Shown here: positions 53,562-59,254 of the stretch, piece by piece
How the letters are laid out: every line of letters begins with the position of its first letter
How positions within the stretch are numbered: position 1 is the stretch's first letter
Source: Rhodothermales bacterium
GTDB taxonomy: Bacteria > Bacteroidota > Rhodothermia > Rhodothermales > Bin80
Direction: 5' to 3'
Assembly: GCA_965200955.1 (NCBI GenBank)
Contig: OZ241742.1
Coordinates: 3,446,070-3,510,069, forward strand
DNA length: 64,000 nucleotides
Notes under the pieces: model-generated
Told to the model about the DNA's origin: nothing
Database searches by the model: none
The model's input: only the letters and a program-made list of their open reading frames with translations
Made by a program: the position numbers and the translations under genes

Positions 53562-54655
53562 TCCCTAACGATCTTGACTCCCACATGAGGTGATCCATCC
53601 TCTGATCATTGCGTCAGAGTGTTGAGATCTATGGTCATTCCCGAGACATTGAGTCATGTCCTCGGACCCGTAATGGCTAAGGTCAATCCGTCATGCTGAA
53701 TATTGACAAACAGCGTGGTGCCATCTGGTGAAAACGTTGCACCGGCCAGCTCGGAGTAACTCACGGCGTTCCGAGCAAATTTGTACAGTTCTCCTTGTGG
53801 AGTGACTCCAACTAGGAATTGCTCATTGGATCCATCCTCACAAACAATGAGATTTCCCCAAGGCGTGACGGTCAGGTTGTCCGCATTTTCTATCAGGCCT
53901 GGATCATTAGGCTCAATAAACAGCTCCAGGGTATCTTCGGCGGGGTTGAGTTTCCAGATCTGTCTGCACTTTGCGTTTCCTCCATTGGTGCAGGCAAAAT
54001 ACTCTGCATGATTACCATACCACATGCCTTCCCCTCGTGCAAACATAGCTGCTCCCTGATCAAATCACCGAAGTCGTTAATCCCCCATTGGGGCTTCCAC
54101 ATCGTCCATATCAATCCAGGTGATGTTCATGGTCTCACCTACGTTGACCATTTGGGAATCCCAGTTACGAGTATCGAGACTCGGCATTCCGACAATCTGC
54201 AATGCCTGCAATTGCCCCCCACCTCTACATCTTCTGGATTCTCAGGAATATATCGGTAGATTAAACTATCATGCTCATCTTCGGTCTGATAAATGATATT
54301 CGTATTTGGATCTACGGCAACCGCTTCATGATTGAACCTTCCCATTGCACGAATGGGCACGGGGGGCGTGACTTGGGGGATATCGTCTCAGGGACTTGAA
54401 AGATATACCCGTGGTCTTTTGCAAACCCATCTCCTGCTAATACCGTAATTTCTTCACAGGTGATCCAAGTGTTTCAGGGGGTTGGGCCACCCGCACAGTT
54501 GCGCAGTGTACCAGTAAGGCTCAGAAACTGCGAAACCAACTTCTGATTTTGCGTATCGTAGATCAGGGTTGTGGTACCACCAAGTGCAGGAGATCCATCT
54601 GTGCCAGCATCATAGAAATAACTTGTATCAAGGCGATTAAGGAGATTATTGTTTT

Positions 54656-56058
54656 GGGAATTATATACGTGAGTAACCATGTTAGACAGCCACTCCAACC
54701 GTATCCATTTCACGGCTCATAGGAGTCTCTAATGAGAACGCTCCTCCACGTGCAGATGCCCCAATCCCGAAGGCCAAGAGTATATTCGCAGATGCATTCA
54801 GATCTGCGTGATCCGTATGCCCACAGGACATACACTGAAACTTGCTTTGTGTCTTCCGATTCTTCTTGCTGGTATGTCCACACTGGTTACACCGTTGACT
54901 GGTATACTTAGGATCTACAAGGACTACGTTACCAAACTTGTAATCGCAGTAGAAATTAAATCTGCTCCATCCAGCATTCTGAATCACGCGGTTCAATCCT
55001 GCTTTGGCTTTTACATTCTTGCCAGGATCTTCAATCGTACCCTTGGCTGACTTGGACATGTTCTTGATCTTCAAGTCTTCACGCTTCAAAGTGTAAGCTT
55101 TCGCAGACAATTGACGGCTGTGCTGATGTGCCGCATTGACGCGGCAGTTCTTCTGTTTCCGCTTCCACTTGTTGATCTTCCGTTTGGTTCGCTTGTACCG
55201 TCCAGATCCTTTCTGTTGACGAGCTAACTTACGTTGATACCTGCGAATCCTTATTTCTTTATCCGTTAGATCAGGTAAAGGATACATGCCTCGTTCACCA
55301 TCAGATGAGGAATAAGAAATATTGTACGTGTTCAAATCAATGCCTATCTCTTTGCCATCATCCTCTCTTTCTGGCAGATCAAAGACTTTATAGAGTACGG
55401 ACATCTTCCAATAACGTCCGTCCTTCTTCACAGTCACTTCAATTGGCTCAGCGTTTGGATAAGGATTACCCCCTTTTCTACGCATCTTCATCCAGCCTAC
55501 CTTTTGAATATAGATATTGTCGTCTACAATCGTAAAAGCACTTTTCGGAGCTGTAAACGATTTATGCTTGTATTTATTATGGAATGTAGGGTGATCACGT
55601 AATCCTTTGAAAAACGCTTGCCATGCCTCTGCCTGCCCTTTTAAGGTATAACGTACAATATGAGATGAGTACTTAGATAACCAACCTGTTTCTTTACGTA
55701 AAGACGGGTAACGCTTGATTAACGAATAAAAGGATAACGAAGGGTTTTCCATATCCTCATGTTTGAATTCACTGTTAATCTGTTTTAGGATCACATTCCA
55801 CACAAACAGACATGCACCAACCAATCCATGCAATAACATGGCTTTATATTGGGTGCCCGGTAGTAATCGGTACTCTATTCCACGATAAGCAGTGGAACAG
55901 GAATGATCCGAAGAGTTAGAAGCCTTAACAGGCATGGTATCAAGGTTGATTGATAGTATGATAAGCAATGGGCAGGTTGGCTGACCTGTTCCATTGTGTC
56001 TGTTAAACACAACCAAATAAAAAGGTTCCGTTTGTGGTTACTCACGTATATAATTCCC
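54656..56058 (-). mobile_element. Non-autonomous TIR/TSD transposon (IS1595-like ends) carrying only tnpB
   Basis: Perfect 24-bp TIR GGGAATTATATACGTGAGTAACCA (54656-54679; reverse complement at 56035-56058). 8-bp direct repeat ATTGTTTT at 54648-54655 and 56059-56066. No transposase inside. Confidence 0.92.
54682..55935 (-). CDS. tnpB: RNA-guided endonuclease TnpB
   Basis: N-terminal YRLLP...FVWN, RuvC-I IGIDLN, RuvC-II REDLKIKNM, KAGLNR, YTSQRCNQCG..CMSCG zinc finger, RuvC-III HADLNASANI. ATG 55935 is the preferred start. Confidence 0.93.
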   Translation of the reverse strand: MPVKASNSSDHSCSTAYRGIEYRLLPGTQYKAMLLHGLVGACLFVWNVILKQINSEFKHEDMENPSLSFYSLIKRYPSLRKETGWLSKYSSHIVRYTLKGQAEAWQAFFKGLRDHPTFHNKYKHKSFTAPKSAFTIVDDNIYIQKVGWMKMRRKGGNPYPNAEPIEVTVKKDGRYWKMSVLYKVFDLPEREDDGKEIGIDLNTYNISYSSSDGERGMYPLPDLTDKEIRIRRYQRKLARQQKGSGRYKRTKRKINKWKRKQKNCRVNAAHQHSRQLSAKAYTLKREDLKIKNMSKSAKGTIEDPGKNVKAKAGLNRVIQNAGWSRFNFYCDYKFGNVVLVDPKYTSQRCNQCGHTSKKNRKTQSKFQCMSCGHTDHADLNASANILLAFGIGASARGGAFSLETPMSREMDTVGVAV

Positions 56059-56709
56059 ATTGTTTTCCCCTAAGGCACCCATCGTTGGATTTGCATCGGG
56101 GTTAACTTCATGATTTCGAATCAGGATGGTTTCTCCCTGTGGGCCTGAAAACGTCGCCATGCCATCAGCTGCCCCTGGAACATAGAAACCATCATCCATC
56201 CTATCTCCCATGCGAGATATGACTTTGTAACTAAAATTTTCAGGTAAATCCATGATCTCTTTGGGATCAGAGATGAGTGGACCAAATCTGTCCTTTGCCT
56301 GAGCGGTAAAGTTTTGGCATCCAACAAGTAAGTGAAGCCCCACAAAACCGAGTGCAAATGCACCCGAGGTCTGTAAAAACTGCCTACGAGATGTGGGAGA
56401 ATTGTGTAAATGAAGATCTTTCATTGAGAGTCATAAGTGGAAAATGGTACCAAATGTACACCAGTCTACTTGAACATGTTAATCTGAATATTGCAAATAT
56501 TCGGCATATTGCTCTTTCCGCGAAGACCCACCAACGAAATGAATACGTGACTCATATAAGGCAATGTTGTTATATCCGTTGATCATAGATGAGTTTACGA
56601 TGAAATGTCTGCTATTCATCAATGGATCATAGCTCATTGGATTATCATGTACAGACCTATAACTTGTCAAATCTCGCAGAAATGGATCTACTTGAAAATA
56701 CATACCCTC

Positions 56710-57620: not shown

Positions 57621-58982
57621 TCATGTCCACGGACCCATAATGGCTAAGGTCAATCCGTCATGCTGAATATTGACAAACAGCGTGGTGCCATCTGGTGAAA
57701 ACGTTGCACCGGCCAGCTCGGAGTGACTCACGGCATTCCGTGCAAATTTGTACAGTTCTCCTTGTGGAGTGACTCCAACTAGGAATTGCTCATTGGATCC
57801 ATCCTCACAAACAATGAGATCCCCCCAAGGCGTGACGGTCAGGTTGTCCGCATTTTCTATCAGGCCTGGATCATTAGGCTCAATAAACAGCTCCAAGGTA
57901 TCTTCGGTGGGGTTGAGTTTCCAGATCTGTCCGCGCTTTGCGTTTCCACCATTGGTGCAGGCAAAATACACTGCATGATTGCCATACCACATGCCTTCCC
58001 CTCGTGCAAACATAGCTGCTCCCTGATCAAATCCCCGAAGTCGTAAATCCCCCATTGGTGCTTCTCCATCGTCCATGTTGATCCAAGTAACGTTCATGAT
58101 CTCTCCCACATTGACGTTTTGTGCATCCCAGTTACGGGTATCAAGACTCGGCATTCCGACCACCTGCAATGCCTGCAATTGCCCCCCCGCCTCTACATCT
58201 TCTGGATTCTCAGGAATATATCGGTAGATTAAGCTATCATGTTCATCTTCGGTCTGGTAAATAATATTCGTGATTGGATCAACGGCTACCGCTTCATGAT
58301 TGAACCTTCCCATTGCACGAATCGGCACTGCAGGGGTAACCTGAGGTGAAATCGTAGCAGGTACCTGAAAAACATAGCCATGATCTTTTGCAAACCTATC
58401 TCCTGCCAAGACCGTGATTTCTTCACAGGTCATCCAAGTATTCCAAGGAGTTGGTCCACCTGCACAGTTGCGCAGTGTGCCAGCTAAACTCAGAAATTGC
58501 GATACCAGCTGCTGATTGTGCGTATCGTAGACTAAGGTTGTTGTTCCGCCAAGTGCAGGAGATCCATCGGTGCCCGCATCGTAGAAAAAATTTGAGTCAA
58601 GGCGATCAAGAAGATCATTCTTTTCCCCAAAGGCACCCATCATTGGGTCCGCATCGGGGTTGACTTCATGATTGCGGATCAGGATGGTTTCTCCCTGTGG
58701 GCCTGAAAACGTCGCCATGCCATCAGCTGCCCCTGGAACATAGAAACCATCATCCATCCTATCTCCCATGCGAGAGATGACTTTGTAACTAAAATTTTTA
58801 GGTAAATCCATGATCCCTTCTGGATCAGAGATGAGTGGACCAAATCTGTCCTTTGCCTGAGCGGTGAAGTTTTGGCATCCAACAAGTGAGTGGAGCCCCA
58901 CAAAACCTAAGGCAAAAGCACCTGAGGTGTGTAGAAATTGCCTCCGTGAAGTACGTGAATCCTGCAAGAGAAGATCTTTCAT
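57621..58982 (-). CDS. PhoX/DUF839-family alkaline phosphatase, Tat-exported lipoprotein (intact copy)
   Basis: SRRQFL twin-Arg plus LVGC; DGM, RNHE, RNCAGGPTPWNTWMTCEE, MGRFNHEA, ARGEG, DNL, CEDG, ELAGATFSPDGTTLFVNIQH. Confidence 0.9.
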   Translation of the reverse strand: MKDLLLQDSRTSRRQFLHTSGAFALGFVGLHSLVGCQNFTAQAKDRFGPLISDPEGIMDLPKNFSYKVISRMGDRMDDGFYVPGAADGMATFSGPQGETILIRNHEVNPDADPMMGAFGEKNDLLDRLDSNFFYDAGTDGSPALGGTTTLVYDTHNQQLVSQFLSLAGTLRNCAGGPTPWNTWMTCEEITVLAGDRFAKDHGYVFQVPATISPQVTPAVPIRAMGRFNHEAVAVDPITNIIYQTEDEHDSLIYRYIPENPEDVEAGGQLQALQVVGMPSLDTRNWDAQNVNVGEIMNVTWINMDDGEAPMGDLRLRGFDQGAAMFARGEGMWYGNHAVYFACTNGGNAKRGQIWKLNPTEDTLELFIEPNDPGLIENADNLTVTPWGDLIVCEDGSNEQFLVGVTPQGELYKFARNAVSHSELAGATFSPDGTTLFVNIQHDGLTLAIMGPWT

Positions 58983-59254
58983 TGACGAGTCATTTAGTGG
59001 AAAAGGGTGCACATTGTGGATGAGTCTACTCATCATGTTTCTTTTTTTCGGGGTATCTTCACTACTATAGATCTCTCACGAAGATCCGCCTTAAATCGCA
59101 TTTGTGGTCGACTCAATAACATTAACTTATATCCGTTGACCACAGATCTGTTTAAAATAATCAGAAGATTGATGATCGGTATCCTTACAAATGGATCACA
59201 CCCTGTGGAATTTTTGTTTAGATACAATAATTTGACATATTGATGTGATGAAGA

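Follow-up and report, generated by a model that had tools for sequence, protein, structure and literature searches.

A tnpB-bearing IS1595-type element with a covarying RNA structure across its coding end and right TIR, a probable omegaRNA scaffold

Introduction

The accepted view of TnpB pairs it with IS605 and IS607 elements, whose scarless excision takes place beside a fixed motif. ISDra2 (IS200/IS605) and ISXfa1 (IS607) share with the locus described here the fold family and catalytic residues of the nuclease; in them, as we propose for our element, the scaffold runs over the 3′ end of tnpB, a loop ~100-130 nt upstream forms a pseudoknot with the pre-guide bases, and the guide is taken from the flank (PMC10097598, PMC10711439). 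In the solved ISDra2 omegaRNA, pairing joins positions -105 to -103 to positions -5 to -3, immediately before the guide (PMC10097598). As these sources describe them, both elements have neither TIR nor TSD, use Y1 or serine recombinases and insert beside a fixed motif that is also the TAM (PMC10097598, PMC10711439), whereas our element has DDE-type TIR ends, a predicted scaffold made of coding sequence plus TIR, and loosely defined insertion sites.

TnpBs inside DDE transposons with inverted ends have also been reported (Altae-Tran 2023, PNAS, PMC10691335). As in our element, the TnpBs of branches DDE-1 to DDE-6 are prokaryotic, lie within inverted repeats with their 3′ end near the transposon end, and include 'solo' TnpBs whose ends are nearly identical to those of transposase-bearing elements. 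IS630 is the sole family that the main text of that study names in this connection, with no mention of 'IS1595'; a later review names ISL2, IS630 and IS1031 (PMC13565253). We also know of no omegaRNA structure, guide start or TAM given for these branches in the earlier study (PMC10691335), whereas here the predicted scaffold is mapped by covariation and the stop codon adjoins or enters the TIR. The review treats the rarity of TnpB with prokaryotic DDE transposons, and how it might work there, as an open question, and in its section 6.2 the benefit of a homing nuclease to a DDE cut-and-paste element is called unclear (PMC13565253).

A geometry in which the TIR is part of the scaffold has been described for Fanzors (Yoon 2023, NAR, PMC10711439). 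Fanzor2* and Fanzor1 resemble our element in being TnpB-family nucleases in cut-and-paste transposons that are often non-autonomous and encode the nuclease only, in making the TIR a portion of the RNA scaffold, as is proposed here, and, for Fanzor2*, in keeping the pseudoknot. According to the same source, they are eukaryotic or viral and have a short or fixed TSD that is assigned to both scaffold and TAM (PMC10711439); our element, by contrast, is bacterial and has a variable 8-bp TSD, a proposed guide that includes the TSD and a candidate TAM outside it.

Here we analyse a tnpB element in a 64,000-nucleotide stretch of a Rhodothermales bacterium genome (the window). The preliminary description of this locus held that it departs from IS605 logic, which stands; the departure has precedents, DDE-associated TnpBs and a Fanzor-like geometry being already published, and the element is a variant of a known theme. 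Members of the IS1595 family have TIRs, typically make 8-bp target duplications, and include elements with cargo besides or instead of a transposase. The family and its passenger genes were reportedly treated by Siguier, Gagnevin and Chandler in Res Microbiol in 2009. We are not aware that tnpB has been described as IS1595 cargo, and literature searches on TnpB and IS1595, covering titles and abstract openings, returned no such account.

Results and discussion

The element, its boundaries and its insertion site

The element and its parts lie as follows.

54656..56058, minus strand: whole element, 1403 bp, non-autonomous and IS1595-type, with tnpB as its sole gene
54656..54679: right TIR, 24 bp, reading GGGAATTATATACGTGAGTAACCA
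56035..56058: left TIR, 24 bp, the perfect reverse complement of 54656-54679
56059..56066: TSD copy 5′ (left) of tnpB, AAAACAAT in tnpB sense, with the identical 8-mer at 54648-54655
55939..56034, minus strand: 5′ leader from the left TIR to the tnpB ATG, strongly conserved at element positions 91-150
54685..55938, minus strand: 418-aa tnpB coding sequence when read from its first ATG; the open frame reaches back to a TTG at 56016
54682..54684, minus strand: tnpB stop TAA, 2 bp from the right TIR

The 8-bp TSD ATTGTTTT is read from the sequence at 54648-54655 and 56059-56066, and the bases 'tg' (54680-54681) separate the tnpB stop from the right TIR. This 2-bp spacing had been pointed out in the preliminary description, as had the GTTTG that precedes the opposite TIR, and both can be read directly. 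When the empty site is reconstructed by removing the element with exactly 8 bases, a disrupted PhoX-like frame reopens, and it aligns to a neighbouring paralog without gaps (158 of 180 columns identical); deleting 0, 7 or 9 bases with the element does not restore the frame. Assembled contigs from four DNA runs, compared with 54300-56400, cover both element-flank junctions, and the empty-site joint was not seen in them. Contigs of two of the four runs contain a joint of 54678 to 56036 with only 22 letters on one side, which we take to be an assembly effect of the inverted repeats. A scan for promoters and terminators gave nothing exceeding shuffles and, for the minus strand, no terminator-like site at the 3′ end of tnpB.

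The gene had been assigned to the TnpB family from its sequence, and profile matches bear this out. Its product matches OrfB_IS605 (PF01385, 50.5 bits) and Cas12f1-like_TNB (PF07282, 59.1 bits) in Pfam and guided_TnpB in NCBIfam (201.3 bits, cut-off 100), and it falls below the cut-offs of IS200_TnpB (155.8 bits against 425) and IS607_TnpB (72.4 bits against 350). Amino acids 23-392 align to ISDra2 TnpB structures, with the RuvC D, E and D residues and two CxxC motifs present, and GIDLN, REDL and ADLNA align with the catalytic motifs of TnpB-type structures. In an alignment of 10 relatives that reaches down to 39% identity, neither the RuvC D/E/D residues nor the zinc-finger cysteines vary. 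To judge by these alignments, tnpB is intact, with intact catalytic residues.

Copies, relatives and the family of the ends

The genome contains 11 full-length copies of the element (78-100% identity), eight with a perfect TSD, one with a single mismatch and two with none; in all 11 the tnpB stop lies 25-27 nt from the element end. A search of 23 other genomes of the genus found the family present in 21, and relatives occur in Gammaproteobacteria MAGs and in metagenomes. The 57 copies for which both ends are present yield 42 distinct sites with a TSD at one mismatch or fewer. Many copies in one Rhodothermales-titled MAG have a common 10-nt deletion before the RuvC-III motif and keep the RNA region.

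The same 11-16 terminal bases flank other elements of this genome that encode IS1595 transposases. All three of the transposases tested from such same-ended elements match Pfam DDE_Tnp_IS1595 and Zn_ribbon_IS1595, and one scores 177.6 bits against NCBIfam transpos_IS1595 (cut-off 75). A 3679-bp element at C1:2913875-2917553 carries at both ends a TIR in which 29 of 30 bases are those of TnpB subfamily B's left end. The terminal pattern GGnnATTAT is one that we take to mark the ISNwi1 subgroup of the IS1595 family.

The element thus has the TIRs and the 8-bp target duplication of the IS1595 family, lacks an IS1595 transposase of its own and encodes only tnpB. No IS1595 transposase was found within 2.5 kb of 37 related loci in other genomes. 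Its 24-bp TIR and variable 8-bp TSD set it apart from IS200/IS605 (IS1341-type, tnpB-only) elements, which lack TIRs and a TSD, have subterminal hairpins and insert 3′ of a fixed tetra- or pentanucleotide (PMC13565253), and from IS607 elements, which have a serine recombinase and GG ends and neither TIR nor TSD; as in other DDE-associated cases, the inverted repeats that bound its TnpB are common to DDE-transposase elements. By its ends and target duplication, the element is a non-autonomous IS1595-family member of the DDE transposons. It is most likely moved in trans by the IS1595 transposases of its same-ended siblings, an assignment that we draw only from the shared ends.

A covarying RNA structure over the tnpB 3′ end and the right TIR

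We modelled four helices over the last ~150 nt of the transcript.

54788..54807, minus strand: helix H1, GCAGAU...AUCUGC, on the RuvC-III motif codons, with both-sided changes in 4 of 6 pairs (48-sequence alignment)
54758..54774, minus strand: helix H2, GCC...GGC; GGGAUU in its loop (54763-54768) is proposed as the 5′ strand of a pseudoknot
54711..54752, minus strand: helix H3, with outer CACG/CGUG, middle GGAG/CUCC and inner UCUC/GAGA stems
54671..54695, minus strand: helix H4, the terminal hairpin, with the tnpB stop in its loop and a 3′ strand formed by the TIR's inner 9 nt

An alignment of 48 relatives, drawn from Rhodothermales-titled MAGs, sponge-type Gammaproteobacteria MAGs and metagenome lineages, shows that this predicted structure is conserved and covaries. 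In it 94.5% of cells are paired and 20 of the 32 pairs have changed on both sides, against 11.4 +/- 1.4 in shuffles (none of 500 reaching the observed count) and 4-7 in slid controls; the alignment was fitted to the model's structure, which biases these counts in its favour. Among 37 close copies the figures are 7 pairs, 3.0 +/- 1.0 in shuffles (again 0 of 500) and 0-2 in slid controls. The shuffle statistics are inflated by the relatedness of copies within a genome. Covariance-model matches end exactly at the element end in 48 of 48 loci. Third-codon-position conservation climbs from ~0.75 to 0.90-0.99 at element positions 1261-1350. The single-sequence fold is unremarkable (MFE -45 kcal/mol, z = -0.64, with 49 of 200 shuffles folding equally well), and an Rfam scan of 54300-56400 at E <= 1 gave 0 matches. 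Support for the predicted scaffold is comparative, not thermodynamic.

The helices differ in how much they have changed. In H2, one stem pair goes from C:G to U:A in 2 of 37 sequences and from C:G to G:C in 1 of 45. H3 has both-sided changes in 9 of 12 pairs, with 98.9-100% of cells paired in the 48-sequence alignment; in the 37 close copies its outer stem has 5 unpaired cells and no both-sided change. All five modelled pairs of H4 have changed on both sides (87.8% of cells paired, 48 sequences), and a G.G mismatch occurs in 18 of the 37 close copies. H4 is specific to the right end; the mirrored left end folds less stably in 12 of 13 copies.

The nested hairpin drawn at 54711-54752 in the preliminary description is present, with compensatory changes in relatives. 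The terminal hairpin drawn there at 54681-54699 can be formed in this copy, but it falls in the most variable stretch, with indels between subfamilies, and the conserved terminal hairpin is a different one, H4 at 54671-54695.

Proposed pairing between the TIR terminus and an upstream loop

The final helix that we propose would join the H2 loop to the very end of the element.

54656-54662, minus strand: proposed 3′ strand of the pseudoknot, the last 7 TIR bases, AAUUCCC in RNA

This terminal AAUUCCC is complementary to the H2 loop GGGAUU, which lies ~110 nt upstream (-113 to -108 from the element end). The predicted pairing would resemble the pre-guide pseudoknot of solved TnpB RNAs as described for ISDra2 (PMC10097598). 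The loop is invariant at synonymous sites in Rhodothermales-type copies and reads GGGAAU, GGGACU, GGGAC or GGAAUU in other lineages. Loop and terminus combine as GGGAAU/AUUCCC in the gamma lineage, GGGACU/AGUCCC in L098, GGGAC/GUUCC in L087, GGGAUU/AAUCCC in L195 and L196 and, only after a one-base register shift, GGAAUU/AAUUCC in L074. In L098 and L087 the right terminus diverges from the left TIR and is still complementary to the loop; the left TIR of L098 was missed by simple matching and was located by eye from the 8-bp TSD AAAGGGTT. The tail that follows the last hairpin measures 12 nt in the gamma lineage, and in TIR-less relatives it runs 11 nt to the element end.

Both-sided changes in this pairing occur at one position. 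Pair -5 is A:U in 15 distinct rows, C:G in 2 and U:A in 2, with L195 and L196 showing the change from U.U to U:A. Of the 45 distinct rows, 26 have U.U there, and the pseudoknot is imperfect in the lineage to which the window belongs. The other five of the six pairs are never altered on both sides, an invariance that could equally come from transposase recognition of the terminus and from the Gly-Ile/Asn-Gly codons.

Two other pairings were considered and set aside. The alifold pairing of GAAUAUA (element positions 1272-1278) with TIR UAUAAUUC meets a 3-nt deletion in other subfamilies, and a second GGGAA motif of the gamma lineage, CCUGGGAAG at ~-55, to which some MFE folds also pair UUCCC, lacks conservation, with GUGAA, AGGAA and GAGAA in its place. 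GGGAAU is also the sequence of the first six bases of the left TIR.

It is also possible, if quite unlikely in our judgement, that the structure is real and is no working guide RNA in this family, being instead an mRNA element for stability or translation, a DNA-level feature of the right end that the transposase uses, or the omegaRNA relic of a repurposed TnpB. Transposase contacts together with codon constraints could explain the five invariant pseudoknot pairs, the internal copy of the left-TIR hexamer could be a DNA site, and the MAG copies with the deletion before the RuvC-III motif have kept the RNA region. The covariation, however, tolerates G.U and occurs only on the tnpB-sense right end, which fits RNA better than duplex DNA; the stems, last hairpin, short tail and loop at ~-110 match, in order and spacing, TnpB RNAs that have been solved and tested, as far as the cited accounts describe them; and the catalytic residues are intact across lineages.

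The same structure bears on where a guide would begin, for which the preliminary description gave two options. In the first, the scaffold would stop before the TIR, and the TIR would be a fixed guide aimed at the opposite TIR and at the ends of the family. The two TIRs are identical here, so such a guide would match the left end, preceded by GTTTG, and cleavage ~20 bp from a GTTTG-type motif should land near the element boundary. Several observations make this arrangement very improbable. The inner TIR is paired in the covarying, right-end-specific hairpin, and its terminal bases are complementary to the loop at ~-110; the 8-15 nt directly 5′ of the TIR, which would then have to supply the pre-guide pseudoknot strand, are the most variable part of the 3′ region, with indels. 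The open frame enters the TIR in the gamma lineage, L071 and L195-197, with the stop 5 nt from the end. Left and right TIRs are unlike in subfamily B, L098 and L087, and in subfamily B there are 4 mismatches over the 24 positions, one of them at position 2, so that a guide made from the right TIR would not match the left one. Self-targeting of every copy would, moreover, be expected to be costly. The comparative evidence favours instead the second option, in which the TIR is part of the scaffold and the guide starts with the TSD.

A proposed scaffold and guide

We think it probable, though well short of certain, that an omegaRNA scaffold lies inside the coding sequence and the right TIR and ends at the element boundary, and that the guide is formed by the TSD copy and the flank. 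The scaffold would be the last ~150 nt of the transcript, consisting wholly of tnpB coding sequence and right TIR. The stretch that encodes the RuvC-III motif and the C-terminal tail would contain three helices, the terminal hairpin would borrow the inner TIR as its 3′ strand, and the pseudoknot would join the loop GGGAUU (~-110) to the terminal TIR bases AAUUCCC. Because the pseudoknot reaches these terminal bases, we place the end of the scaffold at the element boundary, and a guide that starts at the TSD would follow from that boundary. It would be read by read-through from the adjoining DNA, first the TSD copy and then the flank.

54636..54655, minus strand: proposed guide, read through from the TSD copy (54648-54655) into the ~12 flank bases that follow
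56067..56069, minus strand: candidate TAM, the 3 bases directly 5′ of the TSD in tnpB sense, GGG here

The matching target would be the unoccupied allele, in which the left flank precedes the TSD and flank; in the occupied allele, the target would be preceded by the TIR end CCC. We infer that the RNA is produced and bound by TnpB, and likewise the first base of the guide, the TAM and a benefit from homing.

In this way the element suggests a concrete solution to the placing of TnpB within a DDE transposon, with the scaffold in coding sequence and TIR, the TIR terminus as a pseudoknot strand, the guide at the TSD and the TAM outside the TSD. The family, with its many independent insertions, is a natural multi-copy test case, and it is a source of compact TnpB-RNA pairs with scaffold boundaries predicted from covariation.

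A flank bias on the left side of tnpB elements

The bases next to the TSD differ between the two sides of the element. Among the 42 distinct sites, C at -2 is found in 0 left flanks and 12 mirrored right flanks (Fisher p = 0.0002) and G at -1 in 26 left and 11 mirrored right flanks (p = 0.002), for a motif that was picked after inspection of the first 29 sites and is low in information. At 14 later-fetched sites the left and right counts are 0 and 6 for C at -2 and 12 and 4 for G at -1. TnpB-less elements with the same ends have no such bias (of 16 half-sites, 4 have G at -1 and 4 have C at -2). This left-flank-only motif may be the TAM. The loose TAM expected in the preliminary description is thereby refined to a motif with no C at -2 and with G at -1, on the left flank only. 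A left-flank bias that is specific to tnpB elements would be hard to explain without a directional, flank-reading activity, which also argues against a structure with no working guide RNA.

The TSDs themselves are strongly A/T-rich, vary in sequence between sites and have no clear strand asymmetry at their positions. Many TnpB TAMs are A/T-rich, and a boundary like that of Fanzors should be weighed, in which the TIR and the 3′ TSD would be non-guiding, the guide would start only beyond the 8-bp TSD, and the single TSD at the empty site would be the TAM or part of it. For Fanzor1 and Fanzor2*, TIR plus TSD is the predicted scaffold and RNAs extend ~15 nt beyond the TSD (PMC10711439), and section 6.2 of the review takes the 5′ TSD to be one part of the TAM (PMC13565253). 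We regard such a boundary as unlikely here. A TSD of 8 bp that varies would be ill suited to be a fixed part of a scaffold, and the pseudoknot that we propose reaches no further than the last TIR bases. A TAM wholly within the TSD would also adjoin the target in the occupied allele, so that the element should cut itself. The flank bias, finally, lies at -3 to -1, outside the TSD.

With the scaffold ending at the TIR, the left-flank bias (purine; not C; G or T) would be a possible TAM of the empty allele. A more far-reaching reading, which we find possible but somewhat doubtful, is that the end bases needed by the transposase double as the pseudoknot strand, that the guide begins with the TSD, and that the left-flank motif is the in-genome footprint of TnpB activity. 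Copies would then persist preferentially where the empty allele has the TAM, a motif that is the opposite of the TIR end CCC. If this reading is true, the family would provide the first evidence of RNA-guided homing or drive for a prokaryotic cut-and-paste transposon, with a rule for self and non-self set by the TIR end.

Other conserved regions

Conservation extends to the other end of the element. Column conservation in the leader is 0.92-0.95 at element positions 91-150 (35 copies), and in diverged copies from other genomes the matching remnants are the 3′ ~200-420 nt and element positions 1-136.

The element and its insertion site

The tnpB gene is the single long open frame of a 1403-bp element whose perfect 24-bp terminal inverted repeats (TIRs) are flanked by an 8-bp direct repeat, ATTGTTTT. 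Its stop codon leaves a gap of 2 bp before the TIR, as the preliminary description had claimed.

Features in the window
54656-56058: tnpB element
54682-56016, minus strand: tnpB open frame, stop at 54682-54684
54656-54679 and 56035-56058: TIRs
54648-55 and 56059-66: direct repeat (TSD)
53654-56424, minus strand: interrupted PhoX-like gene
57621-59036, minus strand: intact paralog with a Pfam PhoX match

In-silico loss of the element together with exactly 8 bases reopens the host frame, which then aligns with the PhoX paralog without gaps over 180 columns (158 identical); removal of 0, 7 or 9 bases with the element does not restore it. The boundaries are therefore firm. The element inserted into one member of a tandem pair of PhoX-type alkaline phosphatase paralogs; this interrupted copy, broken into several frames downstream apart from the insertion itself, seems to be a pseudogene in decay. 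In two DNA runs, contigs connect the inner TIR edges (54678/56036), skipping 1357 bases, with only 22 letters on one side. The inverted repeat probably produced this joint as an assembly effect; it may instead reflect a TIR-TIR miniature form.

TnpB as cargo of IS1595-type ends

The tnpB product carries OrfB_IS605 and TNB zinc-ribbon domains, passes the NCBIfam TnpB family model and fails both the IS200/IS605-specific and IS607-specific NCBIfam models. Residues 23-392 of its 418 can be aligned with ISDra2 TnpB structures, and the RuvC D, E and D residues and both CxxC pairs are present. An IS200/IS605 or IS607 identity for the element is ruled out because absence of TIR and TSD defines those families, and both are present here.

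The genome, one contig of 4.19 Mb (C1), holds 11 full-length copies (78-100% identity) plus fragments. The TSD is a perfect 8-bp repeat in 8 copies, has one mismatch in 1 and is missing in 2; an open frame of at least 434 codons is kept in 8/11, and in all 11 the distance from stop to element end is 25-27 nt. The first 11 TIR bases are common to the ends of further elements.

Own-genome elements with the same 11 terminal bases
1453-bp IS: five copies
3679-bp element (L198): C1:2913875-2917553
2772-bp element (L200): C1:3745488-3748259
Several elements without transposase

Transposases of all three same-ended elements tested match Pfam DDE_Tnp_IS1595 and Zn_ribbon_IS1595, and one also matches NCBIfam transpos_IS1595. 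The repeat at both ends of the 3679-bp element matches TnpB subfamily B's left end at 29/30 bases. On this evidence we class the tnpB element as a non-autonomous member of the IS1595 family with tnpB as cargo, and we infer that it was moved in trans.

Restriction-modification cargo also occurs between the same GGGAATTAT... ends as those of the tnpB element, DNA-targeting enzymes being recurrent cargo of IS1595-type ends in this genome: L199 (C1:979904-982856) encodes a complete MmeI-type enzyme without transposase, L198 an N6_Mtase/HSDR_N protein adjoining the IS1595 transposase, and L200 an N6_N4 methylase and a 227-aa protein without assignment, adjoining a transposase. Short MITE-like derivatives without any long gene share this TIR type: L202 (C1:3364414-3365407, 994 bp), C1:125185-125376 (192 bp) and C1:1373043-1373251 (209 bp, with a 76% identity match to the tnpB element's final ~100 nt).

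The main text of Altae-Tran et al. 2023 (PMC10691335) describes TnpBs within DDE transposons that have inverted ends, as well as solo TnpBs bounded by such ends, which our element resembles in both respects; that main text does not mention IS1595. In literature searches on TnpB with IS1595, DDE, TIR, TSD/TAM and pseudoknot, neither a TnpB carried by an IS1595 element nor the RNA geometry of any prokaryotic TnpB carried by a DDE transposon was found described.

Distribution and relatives

The element is present in 21 of 23 other genomes searched from the same genus and in 0 of 17 searched from other genera of the same family or order. A genome-collection scan yielded 37 related loci: 27 in records titled Rhodothermales bacterium MAGs (52-87% amino-acid identity) and 10 in Gammaproteobacteria-, Chromatiales- or Porisulfidus-titled MAGs (35-41%). 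These distant, gamma-type relatives likewise terminate in ...ATAATTCCC and show TSDs of 8 bp; in 9/10 the frame reads into the TIR, with its stop 5 nt from the end. Among 80 metagenome loci kept, the same kind of ends extends down to about 37% identity and includes the new lineages L071, L073, L074, L087 (= L122) and L098. The remoter loci L075-L078 and L081 (34-37%) have no TIR and terminate, as ordinary TnpB elements do, in a hairpin and short tail, here the 11-nt ...GAUGUCAAC, with the stop 15-78 nt from the end, either in this hairpin or shortly before it.

A conserved predicted RNA structure over the 3' end of tnpB

Third-codon-position conservation in 35 full copies is about 0.6-0.8 along tnpB and 0.90-0.99 at element positions 1261-1350 (window 54709-54798). 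The last ~150 nt of the tnpB-sense strand are predicted to fold into four helices, among which the nested hairpin first noticed in the sequence alone is recovered as H3.

Helices (window coordinates)
54788-54807: H1, on the RuvC-III codons
54758-54774: H2
54711-54752: H3
54671-54695: H4

On an alignment of 37 distinct close copies, this hand-drawn structure has 7 both-sided pair changes versus 3.0 ± 1.0 in shuffles (0/500 reached 7; slid controls 0-2). The covariance model built from that alignment matches full length in 48/48 searched TIR-clade loci and always ends at the element's last base. In the resulting 48 sequences (45 distinct rows), 94.5% of cells pair and 20/32 pairs show both-sided changes versus 11.4 ± 1.4 shuffled (0/500; slid controls 4-7), counts to be read with the alignment's fit to the model and the mutual relatedness of the copies in mind. 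The fold energy of the window's single sequence is ordinary (z = -0.64).

The stretch that begins just upstream of the tnpB start and extends across it (55909-55968, minus strand; element positions 91-150) is conserved at 0.92-0.95, equal to the 3' RNA region, and even diverged copies in other genomes match it. It may act as promoter, as leader or as a further RNA; a sigma-70 scan of it found no promoter.

Where the scaffold probably ends

The inner TIR supplies the 3' strand of H4, whose 5' strand varies in step with each lineage's TIR variant. Read outwards, the left-end TIR has no H4-like partner, and the right end is stabler than the mirrored left end in 12/13 copies (means -10.2 vs -5.1 kcal/mol). 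The TIR therefore lies within a structure specific to the right end. The H2 loop reads GGGAUU (-113 to -108 from the element end) and the terminus AAUUCCC, its proposed pairing partner.

Loop and terminus in other lineages
gamma: GGGAAU, AUUCCC
gamma, 2 rows: GGGAAU, GUUCCC
L098: GGGACU, AGUCCC
L087: GGGAC, GUUCC
L195, L196: GGGAUU, AAUCCC

The sole variable pair is A:U in 15 distinct rows, C:G in 2, U:A in 2 and U.U in 26, these U.U rows representing the lineage of the window itself; the remaining five pairs are nearly invariant, and L074 (GGAAUU) requires a one-base register shift. In L098, whose ends are confirmed by the TSD AAAGGGTT, and in L087, the right terminus departs from the left TIR yet agrees with the loop. 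In L195 and L196, the left TIR retains GGGAATT and the right terminus has AAATCCC in place of AATTCCC, a single change that makes the match to the loop perfect.

The solved ISDra2 RNA has a pseudoknot of -105 to -103 with -5 to -3, after the last stem and directly before the guide (PMC10097598), and ISXfa1 RNA pairs -130 with -3 (PMC10711439). By analogy with these pseudoknots, we propose that the scaffold quite likely ends at the last bases of the TIR, with the adjoining DNA as guide. One of the two earlier options, the TIR itself as a fixed guide, fails on H4, the loop-terminus pairing and this analogy, and also on the subfamily B TIRs, which are imperfect at 4/24 positions.

A candidate TAM beside the insertion site

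Among 57 copies with both ends, 42 distinct sites have a TSD, which is A/T-rich. On the left flank only, -3 is a purine in 33/42; C at -2 occurs in 0/42 versus 12/42 on the mirrored right (p = 0.0002) and G at -1 in 26/42 versus 11/42 (p = 0.002), a weak motif chosen post hoc on the first 29 sites. Fourteen sites added later repeat the bias (C at -2, 0 vs 6; G at -1, 12 vs 4), whereas 16 half-sites of elements that share these ends but lack TnpB do not show it. Such one-sidedness is not predicted by a symmetric DDE transpososome; a TAM immediately 5' of a target whose first bases are the TSD would predict it. In the occupied allele, the CCC of the TIR end takes the TAM position and would thereby shield the donor. 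In Fanzor RNAs the TIR is described as part of the scaffold (PMC10711439), as is proposed here. Less probably, the guide would, in a Fanzor-like arrangement, start after a TSD that serves as TAM; the variable 8-bp TSD fits this poorly.

A 10-nt deletion directly before the RuvC-III codons breaks tnpB in many copies of one Rhodothermales-titled MAG (L043-L045, L047, L050, L052, L053 and L057). These may be RNA-only copies served by the TnpB of intact ones; their 3' RNA region is almost unchanged, L053 scoring 185.9 bits with the covariance model.
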